Assembly (NCBI GenBank): GCA_020726185.1
Contig: DYTB01000005.1
Span: 1-63,737, forward strand
Direction of reading: 5' to 3'
Origin: Candidatus Odyssella sp.
GTDB lineage: Bacteria > Pseudomonadota > Alphaproteobacteria > Paracaedibacterales > CAITNM01
Length of the DNA: 63,737 nucleotides
Below are positions 12,293 through 63,175 of the stretch, piece after piece (within the stretch, counting starts at the first letter, position 1; each line of letters opens with the position of its first letter). A program made the translations under genes and the position numbers. The notes below the pieces were generated by a model. The model had not been told where the DNA came from, did no database searches, and was given only the letters and a program-made list of their open reading frames with translations.

Positions 12293-15200
12293 ATGACTCC
12301 AATCGCTCCTAGCAGTTTTGCTGATTTTATTCAATTTGTGCAAAACCAAACAAATAATCTACCTAGTCTCATTTTTTTGTTAATATTTTTTGGCTTAATG
12401 GTCATGCTGATATGTATTTTAATAATTAACATGAGCGTTAGAAAAGATAAAAAAATCAGTCTTAATGAAAAAAAATCGTTTTTAAAACGAAATTTTTCTC
12501 TTCCGCCGCTCGGTGGAATCATCACTTCTTTTTTGGTAAAACAGGGTTGGATACAAGTTAATTCTATTAGTCAGATTTTTCTAAAGGGCCTTGAGTTTTT
12601 AAAGAAAAATTTTGGGGAACATGCTTTATACAAACTACCTTGGTATATCGTTTTAGGTTCAAAAAACTCTGGAAAATCAACACTTGTGAACCATACTCAG
12701 TTACACGAGCCTCACAGTAGCCCAGATTTTAGTCTGCATGAACCTAATCCCCCTATTCGTTGGAAATTTTTCAGCCGTGGCGTACTTATAGATGTAGCGG
12801 GTCGATTATTCTTGAATAATCCAGAAATAGAAACAGATACAATCGCCTGGCGTAATCTTCTGATTCTTCTTGCACGATATAGGGCATCTAGACCTTTGAA
12901 TGGTATTGTATTATGCATAAGCGCTAAAGATCTTTATGGCAAAGAAAAACTATCACCAGATGCCTTACAAGCCCGTGCAAACACCATGCTACACACTCTC
13001 AGCAGGGCACAAACAAGCTTGCGCTTGCAACTGCCTATTTATGTTGTTATTACATACTGTGATGCAATTCCAGGTTTTCAAAATTTTGCGCAAGAATTAC
13101 CAGTTAAAAATCAAGGAAATATATTGGGATGGTCAAGTCCATATAATCTGCAATATATGTATTCACAAAACTGGATCAATGAAGCATTTCAGTATCTTGA
13201 TGAAAAAATAGATGAAGCACGTACTGAGCTATTGAGCTCAAACATAGATCCTAGCAACGCTGATGGGCTATTTGTTTTTTCTAAAGAGCTTTTAACAATT
13301 AAAGAAAATCTTAGCGGGTATATAAATCGCATTTTTCATGCCAGTGCTACACATGAAGCTCCAATATTGCGTGGTATATATTTCACAGGCAACAGCGGAA
13401 TTAGTGAGTCATCTCTACCATTTCTAAATGAATCCACTTCTGATCTATCATTAGAAGCACACACTAACACATCGATATCTCCTGTATTTTTACGAGATTT
13501 ATTTCAAGGTAAGATATTCTCTGAGATAGGAATTTCTAAACCGTTAACGGGAAAAGTTGCTACCTTGAATCGTGGCGTAAATATTATTCGAAACACAACC
13601 ATATGTTTCACTCTACTTGGAACTTATGGACTATTTAATGCATACGATACTTTTGGAGAAAAAAAAGAACGTATTTTACCCGTTCTATCAAAAATGAGCA
13701 GTCTTTTAAGAGACATGCAGTATTTAAAAATTGATGAACCTGGTCATTCAGCATCTTTATTTGACACTTACGCACGTCAATTACTTGATATGATGCAAGA
13801 GCTTCAACAGACTGAATTCATTTCTGTTATCGTTCCTGCATCCTGGTTTAGTCCTCTACATAAAGATCTTCATGCAGGTTTGCAAGTTGCTTACCAAGAA
13901 ATAGTAATTCGCACCATTTATGTTGATTTACTAATGAAAGCAAGAGAACTTCTGCAATTACGACCAACAGCAGGTGATAGGTCAACCTCATTGGCAGCTC
14001 TTCTTAATCCTCTAGTATCAAGCGAATACATGCTTTTAAAAAAATATGTCGAGGGATTATGCGAACTTAATGATATGTTATTTAATTTTAACAACTTAAA
14101 AAGTGCGCCCGATGCTCGTGACCTTGATAGCTTAATTATGTACACCTTTAATTCTCATTTACCTGAAAGTTTTGTGGGACAATATGCCAGCTTTCGAAAA
14201 GTTCTAAATGAGTCATCCTATCCTTTAATTAACCTTAAGCCCTATCAACAAATGGCAAGACAAACCTTGTCAATTATATATGAATTTTTTTTAAATGCTC
14301 TATTTTCTAAAAATGATTCGCAAACGCTAGTGTCGCGTATTCAAACCTTAGTTAATCAAACATAAAGCCAAAATGAAAAACACCTTCCTGATCTTACGAG
14401 TCTCCGAAGTACTGTGGGGGATTTATCACTAACCGCACCTTCTTTGGGAGAATTGGGCTCAACATGGATGGACGGAAAAACTTTCGTGCCTGGGAAAGAA
14501 TTTGATAAAATCCTTGACCATATAGATATGTCTCCACTTTTTGGTCGTGATGTTACTCAGTATTTAGTTGATCAAACGGCTATTGGATTTAATCGATTTA
14601 AAAATTTCTTGATGGCTATTAATGATTCTTTAGTGGATAAAGGCCTTAACCAGAAGGCGCTTCCCCCTTCTCATGGATTATTAACACTAGAAAAGTACTT
14701 AACTTCATTGTTTAAACTTAGCTTTATGGGGGTGCCTTCTGGAAAGCCTCTCACGACAAGAATTCCTGTAGGAAAACTTGTGTATTGGGATTCAAACTTA
14801 GTACAAGCAGCATTTAGCATGATGAAGGATTTTGATGTTTTCATTAGCAAAGACTTACTAGCCTACCCAATGTCTGTTCAAGAAAATATAAAAATAGCTG
14901 CTAGAATAAACTTGCAAGATGTTTTAATTGGAACTCTAGGTAAAGCATAAACTTTCATAGAGACTCTAAGAGATGTAAAACCAGGAACTGAATCTGAGCG
15001 CATGTTACGCGCTCAAATAAATGACTTTAAAGCTGTTGTTGATCCACTTGGAAAATTATTAGAAATCTTAAAGCAAGACGATGTTAGTAAGGCCTATATA
15101 GATCTTCGCGATTTACTTTGCAATCAATCACAATGGCTACTTACACACATCGACACTTACATTAAACAACACAAGCTCTACAAAATGAAGCAAGAGGATT

Positions 15201-16609
15201 TTGATTGGTGGGATGGAAAACCAGGAGCATCTATTGGCGCATTCGCTGTTCGCGATGGCAATGATTTAAAGCATTACGTAACTGTTCAGCGAGAGCTGTT
15301 AACTTCAGCAATTAATGACTTTGCAAAACCCATTATCGATCTTTTAAAAACCCCAGCTTTTGATGGTGCAGAGGATCGTGATGAAGCCTTGATTGAGCGT
15401 TGGATAAGATTGACCGAACAGGTTGAAGCTTACAATAAAAAACAACCCAGCAATTCTTTAGCTCAGCTTGAAAACTTCATTCTTACAGCCCTTAATGTGG
15501 GCAACTACAAAGACTCACTCAAACACCTCAAATTGAATGACTTATCAGAGATTTCTGGAGACTACCTGCTAGAAATTTTGCGAGAAATTAAAATGAAAGT
15601 TTTATCACGCGCTGAAGTTTTGCAACGCCATCAAGCCATTCAAAATTACGATAAACTAGTTCTTTTCTTTAATAAAAACTTAAAAGGAAAGTTTCCATTT
15701 GTCGGTGCAAAACTTGAAAAAAACAATGGCGAAGCAAATCCAGAAGACATACGTGAATTTTTTGACATATTTAAAGAGTGTGGTGATTCCACCAAGGTAG
15801 TTCTTGATCAATTATATCAAATTGGCCCAGACATGAAGGAGGCTGTACAATTCTTGCTATCCATGGAAGATGTTCGTCAATTTCTTAATGCCTATCTTAA
15901 GGACCCAAGTGCTGAAAAGCCAAATTTTAATATAAAAGTTAACTTTAGGGTTGCCCAAGATAAAGAAAACGGTGGCATTAACATTCTCGATTGGTACATA
16001 AAAACAGATGAAATAACTACAATTGATAAGCAAGATAAAAAATTAGAAGGCAAGGGAAGCTGGACTTTTGGAGCACCTGTAACTATTGGTTTTAAATGGG
16101 TAGAAACAGGAAATTCACCAAAACCACAATCAGACTCAGGACAATCATCGCTTAAAGTTGAGAGCGCTACCGCTGAATTTGTTTATGATAGTCAGTGGGC
16201 ACTGTTATGGTTAATTCGTGATCACCTTGCTCCTAAAGGTTCTTTTTCTAAAGTTTCAGAACCCAATCCTTATGTTCTAAAGTTCAACGTCCCCATGAGC
16301 GATCAAACTTTCACAACAGTGTACAATTCTATAAGTATAATTGTCTCGTCGAGTAAACCAAAGGGACCACCCAAGATAATTACCCTACCAACTTTTCCAA
16401 CATCTGCCCCTGATTTGCCAGAAAAAATAAAAGAAATAAAAGACAAGCCAGTTTTAACTGATGGAACAATTGAATCAACTGCTTTTGGTTTTTTTCTTTC
16501 TGAAACAAAAAAAGACACAAAAGAAGAAAATCAAAAAAATGAAGATACTTCTGGTGAACAAGAGAACAATCCAGAAGAAAAAAAGAAAGAAGAAACAGGT
16601 GAGCAATGA
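12293..16609 (+). pseudogene. tssM: TssM/IcmF, one 1438-codon frame interrupted by in-frame TAA at 14363 and 14948
   Basis: LPWYIVLGSKNSGKST, RPLNGIV, LPIYVVITYCD motifs; ORFs 12293, 14414 and 15002 share one frame and the gaps hold no other stops. Confidence 0.8.
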
Positions 16610-17793
16610 GCGATAGCCTAACACAAACCTCGACCTTTTCTGATGCATTATTAGCACCAATAAGCACAAACAATGGTGTTGGTGAATGGTTACGCTACGA
16701 TCCCATTTATGTAAAGATTCGTGATGCTCGACGTGAGGAAAATGACGGCATGCACCGAGAAAATTGGGAAGGAGAGTTAAAGCACGCAAATTGGCAAGAA
16801 GTAGAACGCTTGTCGACAAGCACCCTACAAACAAAAACAAAGGATTTACAGCTTCTGACATGGCTTTTAGAAGCAAGACTCCATCTGTATGGAGTGGCTA
16901 ATTTTTCACAAGACACAGCACTATTACTAACATTCATCAGAACTTTTTGGAAAGATCTTCATCCACAAAAAACAGAAGATCCTGATCAAGAATTTCGCAC
17001 AAACATCCTTGAATCTTTTATAAGGTTAGCCAGTGAAACAATACTCCTTGAGCCACTTAATGAACTCTCCCCAATTTTTAGTCAGCCCCCCAACCTCGCA
17101 AAATGTTATGAGGCTGACAATCTAGAAAAAACAGCAAAAAGCGGAGGAGCAGCTGCCGACACTTATCAAAAATCTTTGACAAACGGCCTGATTACTATAG
17201 ACAGAATTCGAAATGCTCTTTCTGAAGTAAATAAAGAAAAAGGAGAGGCAAAAGTTTTTCTGCTTGAAGCATGCATACAAAACCTAAAAAGCATTGATGA
17301 TTTTGTGAACGAAGCGATTGGAAACGAAGGCCCTCGCTTTGATGGATTAATTAGTCATTTGGAAGAACTAAAGGGATTATATTGTTTATGCAAAAAAGTT
17401 CCTGATGAAAAAATTAACAACGAAACAATATCCAGCACAACCCTAGCATTATCAGACGAAGAAAAAACTGAATCTAATAAAGAAGGGGATCCTAAAAAAC
17501 AAACAATAGATGACCGAGCTGGCGTTTATCAAGCTATCCGCCAGTTAGGTGAATTTCTTCTTACACTAGAACCTCATAGTCCTTCTCCTGCCCTTTTAAA
17601 GCTTATCGGCGGATGGGAGAATAAAACCCTATCCCAAATTTTGGCAGAGTTAAAAGCAACTCAACCAGAAACGCGCTCGTTATTAGAGCTTCTAGCGAGA
17701 GCAACTCATCAGGAAAACCCCCAACTTATCGCAGCTAACACCTCACTTGGATCGACAGACATTAGCCAACTGAGCAACATTGTTCCAGGGTAA
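16606..17793 (+). CDS. tssA: Type VI secretion TssA-like protein (ImpA_N domain)
   Basis: LLAPIS..GVGEWLRYDP.Y..IRDARRE...W..V......KTKDLQLLTWL; C-terminal EPHSPSP; ATGA overlap with tssM. Confidence 0.8.
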   Translation: MSDSLTQTSTFSDALLAPISTNNGVGEWLRYDPIYVKIRDARREENDGMHRENWEGELKHANWQEVERLSTSTLQTKTKDLQLLTWLLEARLHLYGVANFSQDTALLLTFIRTFWKDLHPQKTEDPDQEFRTNILESFIRLASETILLEPLNELSPIFSQPPNLAKCYEADNLEKTAKSGGAAADTYQKSLTNGLITIDRIRNALSEVNKEKGEAKVFLLEACIQNLKSIDDFVNEAIGNEGPRFDGLISHLEELKGLYCLCKKVPDEKINNETISSTTLALSDEEKTESNKEGDPKKQTIDDRAGVYQAIRQLGEFLLTLEPHSPSPALLKLIGGWENKTLSQILAELKATQPETRSLLELLARATHQENPQLIAANTSLGSTDISQLSNIVPG

Positions 17794-18745
17794 TTTTTTC
17801 TGCAACCAGTCGTCGTACAGAATTTTCCAAGCATTTTATGTATGAGGGGTTGTCTCCTAAAGCCGGGGCACGTCCGTAAAAAGGAACTCCCCAGGTTTTT
17901 GCTTTTTTTGCATAATCAATATCAAGTTCAACCAGGGTTTCTGAATGCTCAGAAACAAAAGATATTGGAACGACCACCACGGGTGTGGATTGTGACCCTG
18001 CCTTTTTAAGCTCATCCTCTGTAGTTGGGGTCAACCATTTGAGCCTTCCCACCTTACTTTAATAACAAATAACAAATTCAGTTCCATCAAAATCTTGCAT
18101 TATAGCAGCAACACTTCCCTCTATTTGTTTCTGATAGGGATCACCACCATCTACAACTTTCTGGGGCAATCCATGAGCAGAAAAAAGAATTCTGGGGGCA
18201 CCGTGTTTCTTTGCCTCGATCAAAATTGGCCTGATAAGTTCTTGGTGAGCCTTAACAAAATCTGGGTCATTGAAATAGCAGCACTCAATGACAGTTTTTG
18301 ATTGCCATTGAGGGGCTATTTTTTGCCATTCTTCAATGGACGATTTTGTGGTTGTTGTGGAAAACTGTGGATACAAAGGTAACAACACAACCTTAGATGG
18401 TTTAAAGGCTTTTACAGCCTCAAGCACATTGGTGGCTCGGGGTCTCCAGTAGCGCATTGCAGGAACAACCATAATATCAAGATCACCATCCAGTGCAGAC
18501 TTTAGGCGCTTTGCTTGAACAAGTGTATTTTCTAAAATGGGTGATTTTCCCCCAATTAAGGAATAAATGCCCTTAGCCTTCTTGTTGCGCGAAAATGAAA
18601 TCCACCTTGCTAGCAAATAGCGAAAGGGGTTTGGTAAATTCAAAATGGCTTTGTCGTAAAACAAGTTAAACAAAAATGGTCGAACAGCGGCAAGAGAATC
18701 TGGCCCACCGAGATTCATTAAAATCACCACTATTTTTTGTTTCAT
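17762..18745 (-). pseudogene. hemH: Ferrochelatase interrupted by in-frame TAA at 18059-18061
   Basis: LMNLGGP, LPLYPQFS, FSAHGLP, VPISFVSEHSETLVELD; junction reads VICY*SKVGRLKW where the family has [YFW]QS[RK]. Confidence 0.9.
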
Positions 18746-19731
18746 TGTTGACCCCGGACCAAATCAATAAATTCTTCAACATGAGATATTGGGGTTTCAG
18801 GAAGAATCCCGTGACCCAGGTTAACAATAAAAGGCCTATCCTTAGAGAACTCTAAAATAGCCAAAACATCTTCTTTGAAATCACCATTCAGGAGTTTTTG
18901 GGGGTCCAGGTTTCCCTGCAAACAAGCCGTTGTGTCATTTAAGGTGGAAAGGTCTGTATCTTGGCTTACACCAAAACCAATATTTAAATGCCCTAGATTT
19001 TTTATGGCCTCAATAGCAATCCCCTTGCCGTAATAGATAGCATTTGCCCCAGGCACTTGTTTTTGGATCTGGTGAATGATTTTTTCTGCGGGTTCAAACA
19101 GCCACTTCCGTTGAAGTTCGACCGGAACAGCTGACGCCCACGATTCAAAAAGTTGCACAACATTTGCCCCAGACTTTAATTGACGAACTGCATGATCTGA
19201 AATCACCACAGTAAGTTTATCCATGAGCTTATTAAAAAGCGGCCAGGTTTTGGCAAGCTCAACCAACCCCTCAAAGCTATTGGTCTTACCCGCGTTTATC
19301 ATGTATGAAGCGATTGTCCAAGGACAACCAACAAACCCAATCAGTGCTTTTTGTGAGTCCAACTCTCGTCTAACATTTTTTATTGATTCATAGATAAGAT
19401 GAATATCGTCAGCTATAGAGGTACCTAGAATTTTCTCCCAGTTAGGATGCTCAAGAATAGGACCAACCCCCTCTTTAAAATGAACCGCCTGACCTAAAAA
19501 ATGTGGAACGACCAGAATATCACTAAAAATAATTGCAGCATCAAAACCAAAGTGAACAATTGGCTGAAGTGTTGCCTCCACCACCATTTCTTGGTTTAGA
19601 CAAAACCCCATAAAATCAGGAGACTTTTTTCTCAAAGCCCTATATTCTGGCAGATAACGACCAGCTTGCCGCATTATCCAAATGGGTTTTTGAGTTTCGG
19701 TGTGACCGTTTAATGCCTGAATAATCTTCAT
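18742..19731 (-). CDS. hemE: Uroporphyrinogen decarboxylase
   Basis: PIWIMRQAGRYLPEYR, FSDIL, LQGNLDP, NLGHGILP motifs. Confidence 0.95.
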   Translation of the reverse strand: MKIIQALNGHTETQKPIWIMRQAGRYLPEYRALRKKSPDFMGFCLNQEMVVEATLQPIVHFGFDAAIIFSDILVVPHFLGQAVHFKEGVGPILEHPNWEKILGTSIADDIHLIYESIKNVRRELDSQKALIGFVGCPWTIASYMINAGKTNSFEGLVELAKTWPLFNKLMDKLTVVISDHAVRQLKSGANVVQLFESWASAVPVELQRKWLFEPAEKIIHQIQKQVPGANAIYYGKGIAIEAIKNLGHLNIGFGVSQDTDLSTLNDTTACLQGNLDPQKLLNGDFKEDVLAILEFSKDRPFIVNLGHGILPETPISHVEEFIDLVRGQQ

Positions 19732-19734
19732 ACT

Positions 19735-20060
19735 AATAATAATATATATATTTAAAGGTTTTAGTATTGATAGTAGTGCTTGTGCAAAAGCCTAATCCCA
19801 AAGTTGTCCCCATCTTATCCACAAGATTTTCTTTTTGTATAGAGTATAGAGTATAGAGTATAGAGTATAGAGTCCGCATGTGGGTTGGTTGTGTAAAATT
19901 TTTTCTAATCTGGGGATATTTTTTGTTTGTGTGTTTACAACTGGTGTATAAGTTGCTGAATTTCATGGCTAACTGAGCATTTATGCACAGGGGGCTTTTT
20001 TACACAATGTTTACACAGCGCTTATGTGTATTTTTCCACAATTTTATGCACATGGTAAAG
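19735..20060. other. Probable chromosomal replication origin (oriC)
   Basis: TTWTNCACA boxes at 19781(-), 19815(+, perfect TTATCCACA), 19890(-), 19981, 19998, 20032, 20044(+); AT-rich tract 19732-19755; next to hemE; parABS nearby. Confidence 0.8.
19837..19873. repeat. Tandem heptamer (GTATAGA)x5
   Basis: Five exact copies at 19837-19871 plus a partial GT. Confidence 0.95.
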
Positions 20061-20079
20061 TAAACAGAGACAAAAAGAG

Positions 20080-24673: not shown

Positions 24674-25561
24674 CTAAACCCAATTCTGCACCTTTTCGGC
24701 AAATGAAGAATAATCTTCTTCAAGTGATAAGCGTTCAGCTACGTGCTTTGCCCACAATCCAACTGATTGTATCTGAATATTCTTTGCAAAAGAATACGCC
24801 AACCTCAAGTCTTGCGCTTCAAGAGCATCAGCAATTGGCTGAAGAGGGCTTTCATCACTTTGATTAGCTTTTTCTATTTTGATGTTCCCATGAAAAGTGG
24901 AAGCAATTTTTTCTAACCATTTGGGGAGACTACTTTTTGCTTTTGGTGGCGTGTAGTTTTTTCGTATATCTTCAAAAGCTTTTTTAAGTTGCTGATGATT
25001 TAAGGGAAGACGAACGGAAAATTGTTTCAATGTTCTATACCCAGAAAATGATGAGCATTCTTGAGGGAGACTTGTAAGCAACCCAGAAAATGGTTCATTT
25101 AGTCTGATTTTTTCTCCAATACGATCAAGGGTGTCCAGAGTAGTTTTTTTGAACAGATTTACAGATGGTGAGCTACCTTGTTGCACAGTTGCTGTCAATA
25201 ATATTGAGGCTTTAATAAATTTTGCGTGTTGAATTTGCAAGGCCACAAATCGCTGATTTAGCTCATTAAAACGATGCTCAATATTTTTTATATGAGCAAC
25301 AAGCTGTTTACTGGTATCAGCATTATTTTTTTTATCAAAAGTTGTGACCGTTTGTTTAAATGGTAAAATTAAACAAATGATTAAAGCAGGGAGCTGGGCC
25401 AAAAGTAAAATAGGCCAATACGCCCGAAGCGCCTGTTTATTTTTAAGAAGTAATTTCTGGGCTCTGCTTTTTACAGACCCGACTAAAATTGTTTTTTTAG
25501 TTTGTTGCGACATCAACATGAACCTGATCGACTTGTAAATTAGCTGGAATTTTAGCGGCAC
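24674..25561 (-). CDS. Mitofilin/Mic60-like (COG4223-type) membrane protein
   Basis: N-terminal TM, coiled coil, C-terminal LEAQDLRLA...W....AERL resembling the mitofilin motif; directly upstream of the hemY-like gene. Confidence 0.55.
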   Translation of the reverse strand: MPLKFQLIYKSIRFMLMSQQTKKTILVGSVKSRAQKLLLKNKQALRAYWPILLLAQLPALIICLILPFKQTVTTFDKKNNADTSKQLVAHIKNIEHRFNELNQRFVALQIQHAKFIKASILLTATVQQGSSPSVNLFKKTTLDTLDRIGEKIRLNEPFSGLLTSLPQECSSFSGYRTLKQFSVRLPLNHQQLKKAFEDIRKNYTPPKAKSSLPKWLEKIASTFHGNIKIEKANQSDESPLQPIADALEAQDLRLAYSFAKNIQIQSVGLWAKHVAERLSLEEDYSSFAEKVQNWV

Positions 25562-26366: not shown

Positions 26367-27182
26367 CTACTTTAATTTCATCAGTTGTTCTTGCCAAACA
26401 CTAGGCCAATTACTATCGTGGTCAAATCCTTCAACAGTCACAATAGTGACTTTGTTTGTATCAATCTGTTGTTTGTACTGCTTGCCTAAATCAATGGTTG
26501 TATTTTCATCGATTGTACCAAGAAAGTGAATTTGCGGAATGTGTCCAAGAATAGCTTTGTTTTTTAATGGGTCGAGAGATTCAAAAAGAGGTTCTGCGTT
26601 ATGATATCTTGTCCAGCTCTTGTGATCTAAATTTCCAGCAAAAGAAGTAATTTGTTCTATGTTCTCTAAATGTGGTGCCAACAATAATGCGACTGATGCT
26701 CCGCCAGAATATGCAACAATTTCAATGGTTTTAAAATGAAACTGTTTCTGACAATTTTTTATGACTTCCAGAATTGACTGAATTACTTCAGGGGCATAGC
26801 GTGCAGTTGTCCAGTATCTAGAATCAGAGCGTTTACTTTTTATATAGTGGAAGGGCCTATTAATCACAATTTTTGTGACATGCCGCTTATCAACAGAAGC
26901 TAGCCTTAATGCCATGGGGTCTGTTGGAGTAGGGTCTATTGCTACCTCTCTATATTTATTGATGACAAGACCGTCACCTTCCAGATATATAGCAGCGTGA
27001 CTAGAATCATTTTCTTGATAAAAAATCTGAATGGGGAATAGCGAAGATTTGATAATTCTTGGTTTGTAGTTATTTTGTTGAGCTAGATCCAAAGCTTTAT
27101 TAATACGCGTTTGATCGCTACTGCAACCAAATAAAAAAAAGGCGGTGAAAACCACCGCCTTTTTTAGTCTTTCTAAAATCAC
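26367..27182 (-). CDS. Alpha/beta-hydrolase lipoprotein
   Basis: Lipobox-like FLFGC; YLEGDG...DPTP; nucleophile elbow AYSGG; AGNLDH; C-terminal His (GFDH). Confidence 0.7.
   Translation of the reverse strand: MILERLKKAVVFTAFFLFGCSSDQTRINKALDLAQQNNYKPRIIKSSLFPIQIFYQENDSSHAAIYLEGDGLVINKYREVAIDPTPTDPMALRLASVDKRHVTKIVINRPFHYIKSKRSDSRYWTTARYAPEVIQSILEVIKNCQKQFHFKTIEIVAYSGGASVALLLAPHLENIEQITSFAGNLDHKSWTRYHNAEPLFESLDPLKNKAILGHIPQIHFLGTIDENTTIDLGKQYKQQIDTNKVTIVTVEGFDHDSNWPSVWQEQLMKLK
27133..27165. terminator. Bidirectional intrinsic terminator hairpin
   Basis: A8-GGCGGTG-AAAAC-CACCGCC-T6, just after the outer-membrane protein stop codon. Confidence 0.8.
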
Positions 27183-28350
27183 TAGAAACCGTAGTGAACA
27201 CGAAGACCAGTTACGTAAGTAGACAATTGACCACGTTTTGTGTAATCGAATTGCAAGCTTCCTGATAATTGGTCATCATTTTTCACTTGGAAACCAGTAC
27301 CACCACCAAAGGCTGAGCGGTTTATTTCGTATTTTTTACCTTTTGCGTATGTAACACCTTTGTTTTCTTTCACGTCATATTGACCATGAATGTTTACGAA
27401 AGGCATAACACTTGGAGTCATTTGGTAACCAACTAAAATTTTCGCCACTGCAGTTTGTGCTTTGAAAGTGTTAGATGGAACAACTTTAGCTTCATTAGCA
27501 TACGCTGCATCTGCAGAAGTTTCCTTAAACTTGCTCATTTTGCTTTGCATCATTAAGTAACCAACTTGCAAGCTGAAAGATGCTTTGTTCACTTTGTTTA
27601 CAAAGTTAGCAAACACACCACCAAACATTGCCTGTGACTTTGGTGAGCAGTTGAAAACGTTGTCGATGTTTTTAATTGGAGCACCGTTCACTGGAGCTTG
27701 TGCGATCCAACGACGCGTGTCTTTTCCGTTTGTTGTGCTCCATCCACCAACAAATTCAACATTAAAGTTCTTGTGTGGAACAATGATCAAGTAAGGGTTA
27801 ACGCCTAATGTATCTTGCTTCATAGTACCTTTGTTGAATTCTGTTCTTGCATCAAGGTGAGAATAGCTTAAGCCTAAACCAGCGCAGAACATGTTGTTGA
27901 ACTTGTAGTCAGCACCAACCATAGTTAGGTATGATTTACCATTCCACTGTTGATCTTTTGTTGCGTTGTCAATAAAGCCCATGCTTGCACGGATCCATGT
28001 AGATGCACGGTGAGCGGAACCGGTTGAACCAGCAATTTTTACGCCAGCATCTGAACCAGAAGTAGCTGCGCTTGAATCACTTCCACGCATTGCTTCAGCA
28101 GCTTCAGCAGTTACTGCGCCAACCAAACCCATATTTTAGTTACTTTAATTGCCATGATAGAAGCTTCTGTAACAACTGCAGAAGGAGTTGTTGCGACAGA
28201 GTCATAAGCGTTTGCTGAGTATGATCCGCCAGTACCAGCTGATGATGTTCCAGCAGGGGCGCCTGAAGTGATTACAGCAGACAGTTGCCCGCTTCCTATA
28301 AATGCAGCAGCAAGAGCAAGCGCCTTTACTGCCTTAAATTGTTTAAACAT
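27182..28350 (-). pseudogene. Autotransporter-type beta-barrel outer-membrane protein, split by a one-base frameshift near 28134-28137
   Basis: RBS GAGGA then MFKQFKAVKALALAAA signal peptide; Ser/Thr/Ala-rich N-terminus; alternating beta strands ending VHYGF; one extra A in the A4 run joins both ORFs (KVTKNMGLV). Confidence 0.7.
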
Positions 28351-28509
28351 AGATATCCTCTTAAAAAATATATTATTACAATCTAAAATATATACTAACT
28401 CTGTAAAATCTTTTGTTTTTTGCTTCAATTTTTCTGTATAATCCACAGATGTATCCCACATGCAACAAATTAAGTTTTGCTTTAATAATCTATTAATATG
28501 GGTTAACCA

Positions 28510-40075: not shown

Positions 40076-40492
40076 CTATACCATATGCTGCACACCCAAA
40101 CTGGGTGCATAGGAGGTTTCAAACAATTTGCCGAAAGCTGTGTAAAATGCAGGTTTGAATTTCACTTTATCAAAATACAAGTCCATTAGTTTCTTGTTTC
40201 CACGACTTGAAAGATCCAACAAATCAACGTTTTGTTTCATAGCATTTGTAATGGTTTTCAATAGAGTGTTTACGTTTTGCTGTTGTGGTTTTTCCAATTG
40301 TTTCCAGCATGTGGGATCAAGAATTTGATCTGCTAAATGCTGATTACTTTTAAACAATTCTGATTTTTTTTGTAATAATGAATCTAACTGAGTAAGACGC
40401 GTATCTCTTAGATATTGCTCTTCCATTTGCATAATCTGAAGCAAACTTTCTGCTGTTTTACAAAAATCATCGTATATACTAGAGAAGGACAT
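40076..40492 (-). CDS. flgN: FlgN-like flagellar export chaperone
   Basis: ATG 40492 preceded by AGGAG; helical protein, E..YL...L....KK.L pattern; between flgJ and flgK. Confidence 0.5.
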   Translation of the reverse strand: MSFSSIYDDFCKTAESLLQIMQMEEQYLRDTRLTQLDSLLQKKSELFKSNQHLADQILDPTCWKQLEKPQQQNVNTLLKTITNAMKQNVDLLDLSSRGNKKLMDLYFDKVKFKPAFYTAFGKLFETSYAPSLGVQHMV

Positions 40493-40883
40493 TGACCGAC
40501 TCCTGATTGTTGAAATGAAAGTCTTCACTATCAGTAATTGCGTTCGTATTTAGCATTTCTGGAGTATTTTCTACCCCCATATTTTTGTATAAATCTTTCT
40601 TAATGCTTGCTCGAATATTGAGTGACTCGGCTCCACCAGAATTAGCAACGGCGTCAATAAACATTGAGCGTAAAATCCCTGAAGCATGACTGTCTCCCCA
40701 CAAAGCACTATCTTCTGTAGTGGCAAACATAGCTTTTACTAAATGCGCATAACACATAGACTGGAATTCTCCAGCAACCTTATCAATTTCTTTTTCATTA
40801 CTTTTTGAACGAGAAAGTGATTCCAATTTATTAAGTGCAGATTGCGAAGTCAGTGTAGAAATATCGACATTTGATTAAATCAT
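40479..40883 (-). pseudogene. flgJ: Short rod-binding FlgJ; in-frame TAA at codon 3 if ATG 40883 is the start
   Basis: A.EFQSM....LVKAMF...........RSMF.D Rod-binding pattern; ATG ATT TAA TCA in frame just after the flgI stop; fallback start TTG 40826. Confidence 0.6.
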
Positions 40884-40886
40884 GGC

Positions 40887-42542
40887 TTAACTCACTATAA
40901 CTTCTGCATGAAGAGCACCAGCTGCTTTTATACTTTGCAAAATTTGTGCCATTTCTCGTGGTGAGGTTCCCAAGATATTTAAAGCATTTACTAATTCTTC
41001 AAGGTCTGCGCCCGCATCTAAAATGGCAAATTTACCTTTTTGTTCTTCAATTTTAAGCTTTGTTTCATTAACAACAGTTGCTTGCTGCAAAGGGGTATTC
41101 GTATTAAGCGCAGCATTCATCATTGATGGTGGCTGAGCAGTAGTTGGTGTTTGTGTTGTTGTATTATTAACTGCGGGAGCAGGGATAATTCCACCAATTG
41201 CAGATGCTATTTGAACTGGTGTGGCGACTACGGGAAGAGTAGCTATTGCTGCAACTATTTGAGCAACTGTAGTGCCTGCTGGAATAGCAACAGGAGCTTC
41301 TGCAGCATTAGGTGCGCCAACGGTTCCTATCGCTGCGGCTATTGCAGTAAGTGATGCCTTTGCAGGAAGAGCAGCTAACGCAGTGCCTATTTGTCCTATA
41401 TTAACTCCATTACGGATAACTGTAGGTATTGTGGTGCCTAAAACTTGTCCACTCGTTTGCACAACAGTTGCAGGAGCAGCTGTGCTTGTTGTCTGCCCGT
41501 TCAATGCCATTCCAAGTCCAATAGAGGCTCCTGGATTATTTGCTAATGGATTAACCACCTGAGTAAACGGGTTTGGTTGCGAAACAGAAGCAGATTCTGC
41601 AATACGAACCGTGACAGAGCCGTGCGTTAAAGCAACTGCACTAATGCGCACTTTATTTCCAAGAACAATCACCCCAGAAGGATCAATAATAACTTTTGCA
41701 ATCTGATCTGGCTCAATTTCCAGCTGTTCAATTTGAGTCATTGCTTCAATGATTTTTTCAGATGATCCTCTTGGCATTTCAATGTTAATGCTTGCTGAAT
41801 CTTGAGTTGTTGCAACGGTGCGATGAAAATGCCCATTGACTGCTTCTGCCATGCGCTTTGCAGTTGTTAAGTCAGGGCTTCTAAGGCTTAAGGTTTGACT
41901 TTTTAAATCTGTTAATTGGAAAGCTATTTCTTTTTCAACAATAGCACCGTTTGGAATTTTTGCAGTTGTTGGGATGCCTGTTACTTGAGATGTGGCAACG
42001 CCTTGAGCAGATGTTCCCGATACAATAACTTCTCCTTGCCCAACAGCATAGACTTCGCCATCAGCTGCCATTAATGGTGTTACTAATAATGTGCCGCCAT
42101 TTAAATCTTTCGCATCACCAAGTGCAGATACAACTATATCAATAGTTGTGCCTGCATGCGCAAACGGGGGTAATTTAGCAGTAACCATGACAGCTGCCAC
42201 ATTTTTACCTGATGGCAGGGTATTATCACGAATGTTGACGCCTAAACGTTCAAGCATCCCTATTAGGCTTTCTTTTGTGTAGGGAGAGCTTGAAAGTGTA
42301 TCGCCGGTTCCATTTAAACCAACAACCAAGCCATATCCAACTAATTGGTTGTCGCGAATGCCAGCGAAACGAGCAATGTCCTTAATTCGAACTTTAAGAT
42401 TTTTATTGGACGCTGCAGAAGAACGTATTATTTTTCTTTCAGTTATGGGCTGTGGATCTTTAGGTTTTCCTGAATCTTCATCAGCATCTGCATGAACGCT
42501 AAGGCTGAACCCCATACACAAAATAATATAAACAAAAACCAT
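40887..42542 (-). CDS. flgI: Flagellar P-ring protein with a large internal insertion
   Basis: RIKDIA...RDNQLVGYGLVVGLNGTGD, KNVAAVMVTAKLPP, GGTLLVTPL, LQSIKAAGALHAE; 551 aa. Confidence 0.92.
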   Translation of the reverse strand: MVFVYIILCMGFSLSVHADADEDSGKPKDPQPITERKIIRSSAASNKNLKVRIKDIARFAGIRDNQLVGYGLVVGLNGTGDTLSSSPYTKESLIGMLERLGVNIRDNTLPSGKNVAAVMVTAKLPPFAHAGTTIDIVVSALGDAKDLNGGTLLVTPLMAADGEVYAVGQGEVIVSGTSAQGVATSQVTGIPTTAKIPNGAIVEKEIAFQLTDLKSQTLSLRSPDLTTAKRMAEAVNGHFHRTVATTQDSASINIEMPRGSSEKIIEAMTQIEQLEIEPDQIAKVIIDPSGVIVLGNKVRISAVALTHGSVTVRIAESASVSQPNPFTQVVNPLANNPGASIGLGMALNGQTTSTAAPATVVQTSGQVLGTTIPTVIRNGVNIGQIGTALAALPAKASLTAIAAAIGTVGAPNAAEAPVAIPAGTTVAQIVAAIATLPVVATPVQIASAIGGIIPAPAVNNTTTQTPTTAQPPSMMNAALNTNTPLQQATVVNETKLKIEEQKGKFAILDAGADLEELVNALNILGTSPREMAQILQSIKAAGALHAEVIVS

Positions 42543-49156: not shown

Positions 49157-49164
49157 AATTTTAC

Positions 49165-56180: not shown

Positions 56181-56409
56181 AAAAAAATCCTTTTTTAAAA
56201 ATCCACAAAAACATAAGCGTTGAAAGTTGCAACCATCGTTGTAACTAACATTTAAGTATTTTGGTTCTTTTCAAAAAAGCTAGCGGCTCTACCAGTAACC
56301 AAAGATAATAGCCTTAGGTCATACATTTGGCTGTCTTTGGATTCTTGGCAAAACGGGTCTTTTAATTAAAGCTTGAAGGTTCAAGCGGGCGATTAATAGC
56401 TAGTGGCCT

Positions 56410-57402: not shown

Positions 57403-57423
57403 TGACTAACGTTGTCATCGTCA

Positions 57424-59259
57424 TTAAACTTTTCCTTGTTGTGGGACGGTTGGGACATGACCTTTCCCAGCAGGGGTCGATACATACTCTGCTGGCGCTC
57501 CGCGTCCTGCAACACTTTCTTCCATCATGGTCTTTTGTTGCATCGCCTGCTGCATTTCACTTGCAATCGTTTCAGGGTCGCGAATCCCCAGGCGTCGCAT
57601 CAGATCAGGAGATGTCATCAGCCACTGAGCATGGGCATTCGACAATAGCGATTCAAAGGTTGCCTTTTGTTCCGCAAAAGAACTTTGATAATCTGGGACT
57701 TCTTCAATGTACAAGGAAATCGGTAGGTTACGAATATCATTAAGCACCATGGGCTTACCATTGATTTCTCTGATCAGGTTTAAAATGATCACCTCTCGTT
57801 CCGGTGGACTTAAAATCTCCACAGCCAGATTCATCGCTTGACTTGCTTGAATCAGAGCCAGGATAAAACGTGCTTCGCGTTTCTTCATTTGCGAAAAATT
57901 ATCAAAGGCAAAGACATTGTTCCTTACACTGTTAACTTGACGAATATTTTGAGCAACGCCACTGGTGGCATTGGTTTGCACCCCGAGCATTTCATCATAA
58001 ATGCCTGTGACACGCTGCATCAGATTAAGGTAGAGTTCGACAATTTTAATCTGCTCTTCACCCATTTGCGCATTACTCGACATCTGAAACTTGGAATCCT
58101 TTGGCAGCACGATCACCGAATCGATTGCTTTGAGTTCTTGGCGAATCTTTTCAAGATCACTTCCTGCCATTGGATTGCCTTCAAAGATCACTCGAGCAGA
58201 ATTGATTGCATAAACCGATTTTGTAACCCTCACATTGCAATCGCGTTGAATATCTTTCATGCTTTCTAACAAGCCATACGCAACGCCTGTTTTAAAACGG
58301 CGTTGAAAGACAATCGGAATATAGCTAAAGTCGTGCTGATCTGGAAAGGTGGCATCTAAGGGGGCATGTTCTAACAGGATGTTATCTAAAAACAAGGTCC
58401 GCATAATGCGTTCTCCCTGACTTTCTGCTATATCCTTATCCGCCGATGCAACGAGCTCTTCAGCAGTTTCAAGCGTAAAGGTTTTAAAGGATCGACCTTG
58501 GTGATCAATACCCTGATACACTTTATGGGGAACTTTGTATTGGACTTCTACCACCAATACACGGTTTTGATTAACCCCGTTATAATTGCTGTAATCAGTA
58601 TAGGCAGAGTTGCGGTCCATCAGCTCTGGACTAAATAGTCCTTCATAGTAAGCAGAATCTTGATTAACCTCAATGTCACTAGCGGTTTTAGGCCACCTCG
58701 CTTTGACCATTCGAGGGTCCATCCAGCGTTTACGGCAGACGTATTTCATGGCCGTATATTGTGGGGTGAGATCATCGGGATCTGGGATAATATTAAAGGG
58801 ATGCACGTAATCATAAAAAATTTCGCCATCTTCTTTGTACAAATAACTCCAGCCAATCCCACAAATTAGGGAGTCTCTGAATTTTAAGCTGCCTTTATAG
58901 GGTAATTCCTCATGCTCTTGAATATAAAACAACAGATGGGTTAGGGCTTCAGCGAGTTTATCATCTTGGATGTTATGGGAATCATTACGGCAAGCGGTAC
59001 GGTAACGGGATTGGATTTCGACACCGGAAAGATTATCGATAAAACCTTTGCAGATATTAACGGTAATTGGCAGTTGGCTACGTTCTTGTAGCTTGTGCAA
59101 ATCAATATTTTGCCACTGGCCCGTGCCATCGTAAAATCCATAGTCATTAATACATTTGTTACGAAACTCCACGGCAGATGGATGCAGATTGGCAGCCCTA
59201 AAATATTCTTGGGCGGTGGTCAGGGCCTTTTGCCGAGATGCTGAAAGTGGGTAGGTCAT
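57424..59259 (-). CDS. Portal protein (P22 gp1-like)
   Basis: 611 aa; FYDGTGQW, TVNIC, G.GW, DPD, YG....MKDIQRDCN, SGVA. Confidence 0.8.
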   Translation of the reverse strand: MTYPLSASRQKALTTAQEYFRAANLHPSAVEFRNKCINDYGFYDGTGQWQNIDLHKLQERSQLPITVNICKGFIDNLSGVEIQSRYRTACRNDSHNIQDDKLAEALTHLLFYIQEHEELPYKGSLKFRDSLICGIGWSYLYKEDGEIFYDYVHPFNIIPDPDDLTPQYTAMKYVCRKRWMDPRMVKARWPKTASDIEVNQDSAYYEGLFSPELMDRNSAYTDYSNYNGVNQNRVLVVEVQYKVPHKVYQGIDHQGRSFKTFTLETAEELVASADKDIAESQGERIMRTLFLDNILLEHAPLDATFPDQHDFSYIPIVFQRRFKTGVAYGLLESMKDIQRDCNVRVTKSVYAINSARVIFEGNPMAGSDLEKIRQELKAIDSVIVLPKDSKFQMSSNAQMGEEQIKIVELYLNLMQRVTGIYDEMLGVQTNATSGVAQNIRQVNSVRNNVFAFDNFSQMKKREARFILALIQASQAMNLAVEILSPPEREVIILNLIREINGKPMVLNDIRNLPISLYIEEVPDYQSSFAEQKATFESLLSNAHAQWLMTSPDLMRRLGIRDPETIASEMQQAMQQKTMMEESVAGRGAPAEYVSTPAGKGHVPTVPQQGKV

Positions 59260-59480
59260 TTAGCTCCTACCTGCGCTGAATAGAGGTTGGCAATTCTAGA
59301 TGGCAAGAGGTTGGTAAAATTGTGGAGGTTGGCAAAAAAACTGCAACGCCTTTGATATGTGATCATGGCTCTCTGCCTTGCTGACCAGAGGTTGGCAAAA
59401 TTGTGGAGGTTGGCAAAACTACAATACCCTTGAGCTGTGGTCGCAACCTTTTGCCAAGCTGATGAAAATGGGTATGCCAT
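59256..59480 (-). CDS. 74-aa ORF made of diverged copies of the portal N-terminus
   Basis: 15/26 identity with portal residues 1-26; ATGA overlap with the portal start; repeats keep frame. Confidence 0.45.
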   Translation of the reverse strand: MAYPFSSAWQKVATTAQGYCSFANLHNFANLWSARQRAMITYQRRCSFFANLHNFTNLLPSRIANLYSAQVGAK

Positions 59481-59544
59481 CGGTTAAGCCTTTGTTAAAA
59501 ACTTTAAAAATGTTAATACGATAAATACTGTTAAGAACTTATGT

Positions 59545-59572
59545 AGTATAACATCTTTGTTGATAAATTCAA
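59545..59572 (-). promoter_or_regulatory. Possible sigma70-type promoter upstream of the mini-ORF/portal operon
   Basis: TTGAAT-N16-TATACT with extended -10 TG. Confidence 0.35.
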
Positions 59573-59600
59573 TATTTATGAATTTACTTCTTACTCCTTA

Positions 59601-61028
59601 TCATAAATAACCAGCTTCTTGCCAACGGGGCGCCTTATCGTGATAGAACTGGGTTTGGGTCCTGGCATAGGGTAAGCCACCTAAAGCGTAAAATAACGCA
59701 TCAATGCAGTGGTCATTCTTCTTTAAAATTAAGCCATTATCATCTCTAGCATACTGCCGCCATTCGGTTACCAGGTGACGACAGCCCATGCCTTTAGTGC
59801 TGGAGATGATCTTGAAACGATCACCTCTGACCCGCTCATAAATCTCATCAATCGTTGCTTCTTTAGTGTTATTGGCCTTGTGGGCTTTCACCAGATACAA
59901 TCCGGAACGGTTTGCTAAAAAATCAATGGTCTTTTCTTTGGTGTGCATGTTTTCACCAGCCCCCGCAGGGTCAACCATGCCAGTACACCACTCAGGTATC
60001 ATTCTTGAAATATTACTTGCGTGTTCTGTAGGTGTAGCATTACTCAGCTTATAATCGGCAACCGCATAGACAATATCTTTGTCGCGGTCATGGGCAAGCA
60101 GTACGGCACCCCAAGTACCACCCGAAGAAGCGGAGGGATCAAGTCCATAAACCCGGGCAAAATGATTGGGAATTTCAAAGGGCTCTACAAAAATTTCTGA
60201 TTCCAGCATGGTAAAGACTTTGCCTTGACCAAACACTGGGATCCCATGTTCGCGCGCTTCAAGTTGCCACGAGGGTACGGATTTACGTAACCGCTCACGT
60301 TCTTCTGATTTAAGGTGAGGATTGTCAGCCCAACTGGCCATAATGTAACAGCGCCCATTACTAATTTCACCTTCAGATGCATTATCTAAAAAGTGCGTAA
60401 TCAGCTCATCCTTACCACGCTCCGGCCACATCGAGACCACCAAAAAGGTTTTTTCACTATCAAAGGAGGTGGTGCGCATTAGGGCTTCTTGATAGACCCT
60501 AAAGTTAGGCACTTCATCAAGGTGGATAAAATCAGCTTTCACCCCTTGAAAGGAGGATTCTCCTTGTTGAAAGGCCTTGAACTTCAGCTCAGAGACCCCA
60601 CCTGAAATGTGATGAATCCTGACCGTATCCCAAGCCCCAGCAATTGTCGTATGGGTTTTGCCCTCAATATAACTCTCATGCAAAATTGCTGGCATCGACT
60701 CATCAATATCACCAACAAAGAGTTTCTTCTGCAAAATATCGCGGGTGTCTTTCAAACTAATCGAGGCTGAGATTGCATTAATCGGGCGGGTGAAGCGATA
60801 GCCCTGCCACCATTTAGGATAATTACCTGTTAAGTGCATGGCGAGCTCCATACAGACAGCATTGGTCTTACCGGTGCGGTTACCGCCAAGAAACAAACGT
60901 TCACCTGCACTGGTACCAGCTTGATGAAAGGCCTGTTGTTTAAGGGTGGGCTCATAAAAGACAAACTGTCTTAGCAGGGTTATCGCCAATTTATCCGCAG
61001 CATCAGCATCGATCATTAACTTTCTCAA
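59601..61028 (-). CDS. terL: Terminase large subunit
   Basis: LFLGGNRTGKT Walker A; FIHLDEVP Walker B; YGLDP nuclease motif; KKNDHCIDALFY. Confidence 0.9.
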   Translation of the reverse strand: MRKLMIDADAADKLAITLLRQFVFYEPTLKQQAFHQAGTSAGERLFLGGNRTGKTNAVCMELAMHLTGNYPKWWQGYRFTRPINAISASISLKDTRDILQKKLFVGDIDESMPAILHESYIEGKTHTTIAGAWDTVRIHHISGGVSELKFKAFQQGESSFQGVKADFIHLDEVPNFRVYQEALMRTTSFDSEKTFLVVSMWPERGKDELITHFLDNASEGEISNGRCYIMASWADNPHLKSEERERLRKSVPSWQLEAREHGIPVFGQGKVFTMLESEIFVEPFEIPNHFARVYGLDPSASSGGTWGAVLLAHDRDKDIVYAVADYKLSNATPTEHASNISRMIPEWCTGMVDPAGAGENMHTKEKTIDFLANRSGLYLVKAHKANNTKEATIDEIYERVRGDRFKIISSTKGMGCRHLVTEWRQYARDDNGLILKKNDHCIDALFYALGGLPYARTQTQFYHDKAPRWQEAGYL

Positions 61029-61433
61029 TTCAAAAAAATAATTAAAAGTCTAGGTTAATAATATGTCTAATAATCAGTTTTAACAAGTAATAATCAGAAA
61101 AATTTTGGCTATATTAAAACAACATCTGAATACTTCTATTTAAGCTTAAACCAATGGCTATAGCCATGCCTATCTATCTCCTGCCATGGTCAATGGTTGG
61201 GTGGCAGCATGCCCTCCTACCCCCCCATACCCATAGTATAAATAAATATTGAATACTGATAGCTGACCAGGTGTATCCGTAAATACTTATAAGCCACAAT
61301 TATTCAGGGCTTTATCGCTGACTAAATCAGTTACTTCGCCTTGTTAAGGCAATCGCTACTTAAGCTAAGCCTATGTATTTAGGGATTTTCAGGCGCATCG
61401 TCACCATTGGTCAGCGCATATGTTAGTGGATTG

Positions 61434-61709
61434 TTAGAAACTTTGCGAGTCATCGCTAGCATCTGCCTCAATAATCTCTATCTCGGTTTCAGTATTGCTA
61501 TCGGTATTAGTAGTGGTATTGGTAAACGCCGGAATGCCACGTTTACTCTTCAGCCACAGCTTTAAAAAGGTTTGCTGGTCTTCAGGGCTTAAGGCGCTGC
61601 TGAAGTTAAGGTTGATCTCGGTGTTTTCCTCCCTAGAAATTGCCACAAAGGTCCCAGGCTTGGGGTAGAAGTACTCCATGCATAGTTTGATAGCCCAAGG
61701 CTCCACCAC
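61434..61709 (-). pseudogene. Probable terminase small subunit, 5'-truncated
   Basis: VEPWAIKLCMEYFYPKP resembles the G-D/E-x-x-A-x-K-L motif of small terminases; upstream frame blocked by several stops; upstream of terL. Confidence 0.4.
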
Positions 61710-61915
61710 TGTGTGGTATTATGCTTATCTTCAACGCCCATGTTTTCAGCTATTCCTTATAAAAATTGAGTGGGTTTTGCGCTATTTTCTTAGGTGTTCG
61801 TCGTTATTTCCTGCTTTAAAGAATTCTGTAAACGAGTAAATCAATGCGCTTGGCTGCACGTCAGTTTTCATGGTAAATCTAGTGGTATAAATTTTAGCAT
61901 GAGAAATCTACCATC

Positions 61916-63175
61916 ATGACCTATACAGACAGCACTTTCCGTAACGCTAAGCCTAAAGACAAACCCTATAAACTTACTGACGAAAAAGGCATGTTCCTTC
62001 TCATCCAACCCAGCGGTAAAAAACACTGGCGTTTTCAGTATCGCTTTGCTGGAAAAATAAATACCTTATCTTTTGGTGCTTACCCTGAAGTTTCCTTGGT
62101 GGATGCACGTCAAAAACGAGAGGATGCTCGCAAGCTTTTGGCTGAAGGCGCAGATCCAGGGCATTTACGCAAACAAGCAAAACAAGAGCTGCTCATCCAG
62201 CATGAACATACCTTTGAGCTAATTGCTAGAGAATGGCACTCTAGAAGAGAAGAGGTGATTAATAATCGTCATTCTCAAAATATTTTAAATCGCTTTAAGA
62301 CTTAAGTTTTTCCTTTCATAGGAAATATGCCAATTACCAAAATTAATGCCGTCAATCTTTTGAGTATTTTACGTAAAATCGAGAAGCGTGGCACTCTGGA
62401 AACGGCACATCGAATCTTGCAAACCTGTGGCCAAGTGTTTCGCTATGCTATTGTTACAGGAAGAGCGGAGCGTGACATTTCGGCTGACCTGAGAGGAGCA
62501 TTGAAGCCGGCTGTACAAAGACATCATTCTCACCTTAAAGACACTGAATTACCTGAATTCCTTCAAAAGCTAGAAATTTATGATGGCTCTGACCTTACGC
62601 GTCATGCAATTCAGCTGCTTGCTATAACTTTTGTTCGTACAAATGAACTACGCAAAGCTACTTGGGATGAGATTAATTGGGCGACTTGCACATGGTCAAT
62701 TTCAGCTGAACGCATGAAAATGAAGAAACCGCATATGGTGCCACTTTCTCGTCAAGCTATGGATATATTGAAAGATTTGGAATCTAGACGTGTGGAGGCA
62801 AATCGTTATATTTTTCAAAATCATATTAATCCAGAAAAATGCATGAGCGAAAATACCATCCTCTACGCACTGTATCGTATGGGGTATCACTCAAGAGCAA
62901 CTGGTCATGGATTTCGTGCTACAGCATCAACAATTCTAAATGAACTGGGGTTTCGCAGTGATCTGATTGAACTGCAATTGGCTCATAGAGAAAAGAATGA
63001 AGTGCGGGCTGCCTACAACCATGCGGAATATCTGCCAGAACGATTTAAAATGATGCAGTGGTGGGCAGATTATTTAGATGCAGCAAAACAAGGGGTAACC
63101 GTGTTAGATTTCAAAAAACAGCTCTTTCCTGAAACTGAGGTGACTCATGCCCAACTCTTTGCATGCTACGGATAA
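61916..63175 (+). pseudogene. int: P4-family tyrosine integrase interrupted by in-frame TAA at 62303-62305
   Basis: KPYKLTDEKGMFLLIQPSG.K.WRFQYR; FVRTNELR, HGFR, QLAH, AYNH; junction NRFKT*VFPFIG in one frame. Confidence 0.88.

Follow-up and report, generated by a model that had tools for sequence, protein, structure and literature searches.

The five in-frame TAA codons that interrupt otherwise continuous genes in the analysed stretch of DNA (the window; 63,737 nucleotides) are very probably ordinary and very recent loss-of-function nonsense mutations in a genome undergoing reductive evolution. A preliminary description of the window had proposed three origins for these codons, and the one that is supported here is nonsense mutation in a recent burst of C-to-T changes: stops recur in independent samples, relatives have intact genes, and lesions of all types occur throughout the genome. 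Since the stops would thus be real, recent gene-breaking mutations and neither a new code nor a sequencing error, the finding is an ordinary one.

Genomes and samples

The source genome, which includes the window, is 1.54 Mb in size with 39% G+C. Its lineage is of the Candidatus Finniella type (Paracaedibacteraceae, Holosporales), a grouping whose known members are obligate protist endosymbionts. Genome reduction has been documented for the Holosporales as a group (PMC11909080). The source genome (G000) and its sequencing run (X1) were compared with two independent runs, X2 (a cave metagenome of 2025 from a different study) and X25, which were sampled 11 years after the source sample. A related run that is ~96.5% identical to the source (X3), a lesion-poor sister genome (G003) and a further relative (G011) were also included.

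Premature stops in the window

All five TAA codons were found where they had been described, and the translations confirmed that the frame is open beyond each of them. The proposal that all five could be former CAA codons holds for the two sites in tssM and for those in hemH and flgJ, since the sister genome carries CAA at these four resolved sites, each within a continuous ORF; for the integrase the ancestral codon is not shown. In G011, the ORFs are uninterrupted at the sites of the two tssM stops and at that of the hemH stop. The related run X3 has C at 14363, C at 14948, and G at 40877, the last of which gives CAA at the flgJ site. Three of the four window sites that were testable in X2 or X25 carry the stop there, and only the hemH stop is absent. 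Because the first tssM stop and the flgJ and integrase stops recur in independent metagenomes, they are not basecalling errors.

The IcmF/TssM-like gene of the type VI secretion system (T6SS) membrane complex, tssM, lies on the plus strand at 12293..16609 and would have 1438 codons if read through its two in-frame TAA codons (14363..14365 and 14948..14950). Its first fragment matches the Pfam family IcmF-related_N. In G003 and G011, the orthologous ORFs are unbroken, with 1440 aa and 1438 aa, respectively, and at both stops the ancestral codon is CAA (Gln), as seen in G003 and from the C in X3. A contig of X2 that spans 13973-14899 is identical to the window, and this independent run therefore has T at 14363, whereas position 14948 is covered by neither X2 nor X25. 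The dN/dS of tssM against G011 was 0.15; the segments after the stops gave 0.04 and 0.15 versus 0.21 upstream, so that no rise was observed. This fits very recent stops, and it would equally fit continued function. The lesions would be too young for decay after inactivation to show in tssM. The identity to G003 drops stepwise across the stops (97.8%, 93.3%, and 87.9%). This drop was considered as a sign of decay after the stops and rejected, since a three-taxon comparison placed the changes on the G003 branch.

The ferrochelatase gene hemH (17762..18745, minus strand) is split into pieces of 228 aa and 98 aa by a TAA at 18059..18061 (read 18061-18059), where the ancestral codon is CAA. The Pfam Ferrochelatase match covers positions 2-230 of the family in one piece and 232-315 in the other, breaking exactly at the stop. 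Four relatives in the genus, read directly, have CYQSKVG at this site. The stop is private to the source sample: the contigs of X2 and X25 are otherwise identical and have G at 18061 on the plus strand, which corresponds to CAA. In the Logan contig of X1, the stop is present at a word depth of 10.6. The hemH lesion, at least, still varies among near-identical populations whose samples lie 11 years apart. The stop could be a private polymorphism; a library artefact at the consensus depth of ~10x is less likely.

A gene for a small FlgJ-like rod-binding protein (40479..40883, minus strand, by translation) directly follows flgI and has its TAA at codon 3 (40877-40875). The Pfam Rod-binding match of this protein is weak (21 bits, below the cut-off). 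The orthologue in G003 has 134 aa, is 98.5% identical, and has CAA at codon 3, and the stop is present in an X2 contig of the identical strain. Downstream re-initiation may occur in flgJ and also in flhF, the stop of which is at codon 2.

The P4-type tyrosine integrase gene (61916..63175, plus strand) encodes the Pfam domains Arm-DNA-bind_3, Phage_int_M, and Phage_integrase, and its TAA (62303-62305) splits Phage_int_M. The stop at 62303 is shared by X25, whose sequence is identical across the site. Variant unitigs that differ in one base were found in X1, as a minor allele, and in X2; from the unitig ends at 62304|62306 we infer that the variant lies at 62305, the third base of the codon. No orthologue of the integrase was found among the relatives, and the sole paralogue has Asp at the position of the stop.

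The preliminary description had stressed that all five stops are TAA. This is correct for the five and only weakly unusual (p ~0.02 against the 45% expected from CAA, CAG, TGG, and CGA usage), but the window also holds a CAG-to-TAG stop and a frameshift. The additional TAG, at 24674..24676 on the minus strand (read 24676-24674), separates the last 19 codons from the rest of the ancestral gene, which encodes a 315-aa protein of unknown function. The tblastn comparison with the G003 orthologue showed that the corresponding Q296 is CAG and that the 19 codons past the stop are 100% conserved. The frameshift, at ~28132 in a minus-strand gene at 27182..28461, breaks a 393-aa protein without a family assignment into ORFs of 116 aa and 316 aa, and was recognized from a pair of tblastn HSPs, one in frame -3 and one in frame -2, that meet at 28132.

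Genome-wide lesion spectrum

In the genome-wide screen, same-frame junctions were tested at the gene level against relatives in 61-aa blocks. Among 144 such junctions, 29 are continuous in relatives, and they comprise 19 TAA, 8 TAG, and 2 TGA, the last of which is under-detected by this screen because ATGA overlaps change the frame. All three stop types therefore occur as internal stops and not TAA alone. A codon-usage log-odds score in 40-codon windows was also tried as a stop caller but was too weak, since only one of the four sites already known passed the strict threshold. The codons of the relatives at the lesion sites were CAA (11), CAG (2), TGG (3), CGA (1), and AAA, AAG, or TAT (3 together), with two sites uninformative. 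The spectrum thus consists almost entirely of GC-to-AT transitions, namely CAA to TAA, CAG to TAG, TGG to TAG or TGA, and CGA to TGA. CAA is the commonest sense codon that a C-to-T change can turn into a stop (30.5 per 1000 codons), and the proportions of the stop types roughly track codon usage, with a mild excess of TAA and a deficit of TGA against a transition-only expectation (chi-square p 0.04).

The raw count in G000 was 29 frameshifts and 38 stops over 172,000 aligned codons (38% of the genome), versus 9 frameshifts and 13 stops in the reciprocal count in G003, a load about one-third of that in G000. When only clean internal nonsense sites were considered, there were 14 in G000 and none in G003. 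By extrapolation, we estimate ~100 lesions in ~1,500 genes. Some genes were hit repeatedly: tssM carries two stops, one gene of contig C44 was hit twice, and anmK carries a stop and a frameshift. Three stops of C44 (at 636, 5851, and 6049) and its frameshift near 15550 are also present in X2 and/or X25, which differ from G000 by only two SNPs over 20 kb of this contig.

The broken genes are accessory ones. They include tssM, hemH, flgJ, flhF, anmK, and dprA, genes for an L,D-transpeptidase and a PBP5-type carboxypeptidase, and those for a porin, HlyD, GT2, a methyltransferase, EIIA-man, an ABC ATPase, an amidohydrolase, and a response regulator. The affected functions are the T6SS, the flagellum, wall recycling, haem synthesis, competence, and a mobile-element integrase. 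The ~20 TAA sites that were found all lie within accessory genes. Loss of uracil-DNA glycosylase was considered as a cause of the C-to-T changes and rejected, since G000 has an intact gene of the UDG family, as do 19 of the 20 other genomes that were searched. The motifs of MutS, MutL, and MutM are present in G000.

Error, suppression and methylation

It is very unlikely that the stops are artefacts of sequencing, of the consensus, or of DNA damage, in which C-to-T errors, caused for instance by deaminated cytosines or by amplifying a scarce template, became fixed in the assembly of genes that are in fact intact. In favor of such errors, the source depth is only ~8-11x, the hemH stop is missing from the otherwise identical X2 and X25, and all three differences private to X1 (18061, C44:9378, and C44:13913) are A or T in G000 and G or C in X2. 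Against this, the stops at 14363 and 40877 as well as the three stops and the frameshift of C44 are found in independent samples of other studies taken 11 years later, the integrase stop at 62303 is found in X25, and every site is seen again when the source run is assembled separately by Logan. Deamination would moreover leave the frameshifts unexplained. The artefact proposal thus fails at the first tssM stop, flgJ, and the integrase, and keeps a slight probability for hemH alone.

Readthrough or ochre suppression, in which TAA is decoded, for example as Gln by a near-cognate tRNA-Gln(UUG) or by an unseen suppressor, and the full-length protein is made, has very little chance of being correct. 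All four resolved window sites changed from CAA to TAA, and insertion of Gln would therefore restore the wild-type protein; the dN/dS past the tssM stops is still low. On the other hand, the TAA lesions are accompanied by TAG and TGA lesions and by a similar number of frameshifts, and most genuine terminators are TAA, which ends 56% of the called genes. The relatives carry sense codons at these sites, so that no stop is conserved. The sequence downstream differs from site to site without a common context, and neither element of a programmed readthrough signature, a conserved stop with a conserved context, was found. That hemH is polymorphic among near-identical populations also speaks against suppression. 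Both release factors, for which an inspection had been suggested, are intact (RF1 with PET and GGQ, RF2 with SPF and GGQ). A lineage-specific alteration of RF1 was considered and dismissed, since a 70-aa stretch around PET and GGQ is identical in the lesion-poor G003. No tRNA with a TTA anticodon was found by ARAGORN among the 33 tRNAs of the MAG. Since the completeness of the MAG is 94.7% and several tRNA genes are missing from it, a suppressor tRNA may have escaped detection. If TAA were leaky, with tRNA-Gln(UUG) or a suppressor tRNA encoded in the unassembled 5% keeping hemH and tssM partly functional, this would account for the downstream frames still looking fully constrained, although such leakage is likewise very improbable.

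The remark that restoring C recreates GANTC was borne out for flgJ and the integrase, whereas the link with methylation drawn from it found no support. That the mutated cytosines belong to the target of a methyltransferase (GANTC or another) and are preferentially deaminated, as in E. coli lacI, is exceedingly improbable. GANT precedes just 2 of the 24 nonsense sites genome-wide, and since these 24 sites have no other motif in common, nothing points to a methylation target. Furthermore, it is established that CcrM methylates the adenine of GANTC and not the cytosine, and the integrase variant is at the third codon base rather than at the putative C.

Discussion

The present results favor pseudogene formation by nonsense mutation and frameshift. 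GC-to-AT transitions, the usual mutational bias of such bacteria, would turn CAA into TAA; TAG (from CAG or TGG) and TGA (from TGG or CGA) would arise less often. Nonsense mutations and frameshifts would then persist because populations are small and selection on accessory functions is relaxed. Drift together with relaxed selection is the probable cause of the lesions, and the truncated products are presumed to be non-functional. The evidence indicates routine gene decay, which has no significance for the genetic code or for translation.

The lineage carries a lesion load about three times that of its sister species, and the lesions are young, as seen from the conserved downstream sequence and from the stop that is polymorphic. 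Near-identical populations sampled 11 years apart and carrying such young lesions might be used as a natural time series for the rate at which pseudogenes arise and become fixed in a protist endosymbiont. Annotators of this genome should not presume that its T6SS (tssM), its haem synthesis (hemH), or every part of its flagellar apparatus is functional.

Nonsense hot spots in E. coli lacI reportedly arise by deamination of 5-methylcytosine at Dcm sites (CCWGG; Coulondre et al. 1978). As at those hot spots, C-to-T transitions create stops from Gln codons here, but no motif is shared by the 24 sites. Reassigned stop codons are known from ciliates and some other eukaryotes, where UAR is read as Gln (NCBI table 6), and from bacteria, where UGA is read as Trp or Gly (tables 4 and 25). 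The present genome resembles these recodings in having in-frame TAA codons where relatives have Gln. It differs from them in that TAA still serves as the main terminator, RF1 and RF2 are intact, a cognate tRNA was not found, and only ~1-2% of genes are affected, with TAG, TGA, and frameshifts alongside; none of the defining features of a recoding was found. The closer parallels are the pseudogenes of reductive evolution known from Mycobacterium leprae, Sodalis glossinidius, Rickettsia prowazekii, and the Holosporales. As in such host-restricted genomes, single nonsense or frameshift lesions occur here in otherwise well-preserved accessory genes of motility, secretion, wall recycling, cofactor synthesis, and mobile elements, mutations run from GC to AT, several lesions may fall in one gene, and the orthologues are intact in close relatives. 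In contrast to those genomes, the process is at an early stage in the present lineage, in which no rise in dN/dS was detected and the hemH lesion is still polymorphic.

Stop-interrupted genes in the window

The assembly G000 (1.54 Mb, 53 contigs, 39% G+C, 94.7% complete), of which the window is contig C49, has a permuted tmRNA. The genome nearest to it is G003, a MAG that bears the label Candidatus Finniella inopinata; other matches are labelled Paracaedibacteraceae. Reading of the sequence confirmed five in-frame TAA codons at 14363 and 14948 (tssM), 18059 (hemH), 40875 (flgJ) and 62303 (P4 integrase), each flanked by the two open halves of a single gene, and the gene names were borne out by Pfam. 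The first tssM fragment carries IcmF-related_N, which identifies the gene as TssM. The two hemH pieces cover positions 2-230 and 232-315 of the Ferrochelatase profile, indicating that the stop stands in place of exactly one residue. The integrase pieces contain Arm-DNA-bind_3, a split Phage_int_M and Phage_integrase. The gene called flgJ is short, follows flgI and matches Rod-binding only weakly (21 bits, under the cut-off); its stop is codon 3, just behind the ATG. The flgI ORF (40887-42542, minus strand) encodes 551 aa against the 343 positions of the Pfam FlgI profile, which is matched in two stretches, and may contain an insertion or fusion. The hemH C-terminus (17762-17790, minus strand) is likewise unlike that of relatives: the protein ends in EQCCSVG followed by TAA, where G003 has TTG (Leu). 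This terminal TAA lies ~11 codons ahead of the ancestral end, and the sequence beyond is diverged. It is possibly a second hemH lesion, by which part of the Cys-rich tail is lost.

Presence of the stops in independent samples

The preliminary description had considered an artefact, a recent burst of C-to-T nonsense mutations, and suppression or readthrough. Logan contigs of four runs were compared at the stop sites. All stops were reproduced in X1, a biofilm metagenome of 2014 that is the probable source of the assembly. The strain in X2 and X25, cave metagenomes of 2025 from other studies, was virtually identical to G000: X2 equalled the window over 13973-14899, including the T at 14363 (tssM), and over 40700-40908, including the flgJ stop, and X25 equalled it over 62194-62344, including the integrase stop, while position 14948 was outside the coverage of both. 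Over positions 1-20000 of another contig, C44 (L069), these two runs differed from the assembly by only two bases and no indels, and the stops at 636, 5851 and 6049 and the frameshift near 15550 recurred in one or both of them. At hemH, both have G at 18061 (plus strand), which gives CAA, and are identical elsewhere; the hemH stop is thus private to the 2014 sample. At all three X1-private differences (9378 and 13913 on C44, 18061 in the window), G000 has A or T where X2 has G or C, which reflects either GC-to-AT mutation that is still under way or slight damage to the library. An artefact is excluded for most sites.

Ancestral codons

At 14363 and 14948, the freshwater relative in the fourth run, X3 (~96.5% identical), carries C, and at 40877 it carries G. 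All four resolved sites (tssM twice, hemH and flgJ) are CAA in G003, and hemH reads CYQSKVG in four genus relatives read directly. The proposal that all five codons could be CAA thus held for these four but was not supported for the integrase. No integrase orthologue was found in the relatives, and the sole paralogue (contig C47) has Asp at the stop position. A one-base variant in X1 (minor allele, depth ~3.4 vs 10.8) and X2 was placed, from unitig ends at 62304 and 62306, at 62305; since this is the third codon base, a CAA ancestor is unsupported there. Over 62100-62500, the summed word depth was 40-80 compared with ~10 for the genome, with several contigs 85-95% identical; these communities harbour a number of related integrases or mobile elements.

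Nonsense mutations and frameshifts across the genome

Crude gene calls gave 144 same-frame pairs of coding segments split by one stop, and their 61-aa junction blocks were concatenated and searched against G003 and a second relative, G011. Continuous stop-free ORFs in a relative were found for 29 junctions, ~5 of them doubtful (repeat proteins). The genome-wide count advised earlier thus yielded all three stop types (TAA 19, TAG 8, TGA 2). The relative's codon was read at 21 junctions beyond the window: CAA>TAA (11), CAG>TAG (2), TGG>TAG (2), TGG>TGA (1), CGA>TGA (1) and AAA/AAG/TAT>TAA (3), with two uninformative. From codon usage (per 1000: CAA 30.5, CAG 10.5, TGG 10.8, CGA 5.2), transitions alone predict TAA:TAG:TGA of 45:31:24%. 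Five TAA out of five in one window has p ~0.02 against this expectation, and the genome-wide 19:8:2 departs from it mildly (p 0.04), in a junction screen that under-samples TGA. The TAA-only appearance arises because CAA is far more common than any other codon that a single transition turns into a stop. The five sites are indeed all TAA, but the window is not: tblastn against G003 revealed CAG>TAG at 24676-24674 (minus strand), which shortens a 315-aa protein of unknown function by 19 codons that are 100% conserved, and a frameshift at ~28132 (minus strand) splitting a 393-aa protein without family assignment.

As a reciprocal control, 700 kb of G003 were compared by tblastn in both directions (~170,000 aligned codons). 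Raw lesions in G000 came to 38 stops and 29 frameshifts, and those in G003 to 13 stops and 9 frameshifts; when gene-terminus and frameshift-caused sites were removed, 14 clean internal nonsense sites remained in G000 and none in G003.

The broken genes are tssM (twice), hemH, flgJ, flhF, anmK (stop and frameshift), dprA and those for an L,D-transpeptidase, a PBP5-type carboxypeptidase, a porin, an HlyD-type protein, a GT2 glycosyltransferase, a SAM methyltransferase, a hexapeptide transferase, EIIA-man, a pyridine-nucleotide disulphide oxidoreductase, an ABC ATPase, an amidohydrolase, a response regulator and several ORFans. A single Pfam domain runs across the stop in several of them, and no core information-processing gene is in the set. 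The flhF orthologue (SRP54-type GTPase; contig C3, ~2877, minus strand) is 99% identical to that of G003, and its codon 2 is changed from CAA to TAA, a counterpart to the codon-3 stop of flgJ; both flagellar genes may re-initiate downstream or be dead.

Translation machinery and age of the lesions

Suppression had no positive evidence and several lines against it. A TTA-anticodon tRNA was absent among the 33 tRNAs found, RF1 (PET...GGQ) and RF2 (SPF...GGQ) are intact, the 70-aa RF1 stretch around both motifs is identical to that of lesion-poor G003, and TAA terminates 56% of called genes. Nothing points to recoding. No common sequence motif was found across 24 nonsense sites; for the suggested GANTC link, GANT stands ahead of the mutated base in flgJ and the integrase only, 2 of the 24. 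A UDG-family gene is intact, and MutS, MutL and MutM motifs are present.

The tssM gene is 97.9% identical to that of G011 in nucleotides, with differences skewed 45:22 toward A/T in G000. Its dN/dS is 0.15 over the whole gene and, fragment by fragment, 0.21, 0.04 and 0.15, indicating no post-stop decay so far. The post-stop fall in tssM identity to G003 was rejected as decay, since the changes sit on the G003 branch. TssM (12293-16609) is 98-99% identical to that of G011 (L076, G011:C9) throughout, and G003 TssM (G003:C1:168425-172744) has 58 private changes within the C-terminal third. HemH is nearer to G003 (92%) than to G011 (82%). These relationships look mosaic and suggest recombination among Finniella species.

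Stops shared with independent samples, sense codons in relatives, and all stop types together with frameshifts show that the mutational reading was right: this is a recent, lineage-specific build-up of GC-to-AT nonsense mutations and frameshifts in a host-restricted bacterium. Finniella species are endosymbionts in the cytoplasm of cercozoan and ciliate protists, and genome reduction is seen across Holosporales as a whole (PMC11909080).
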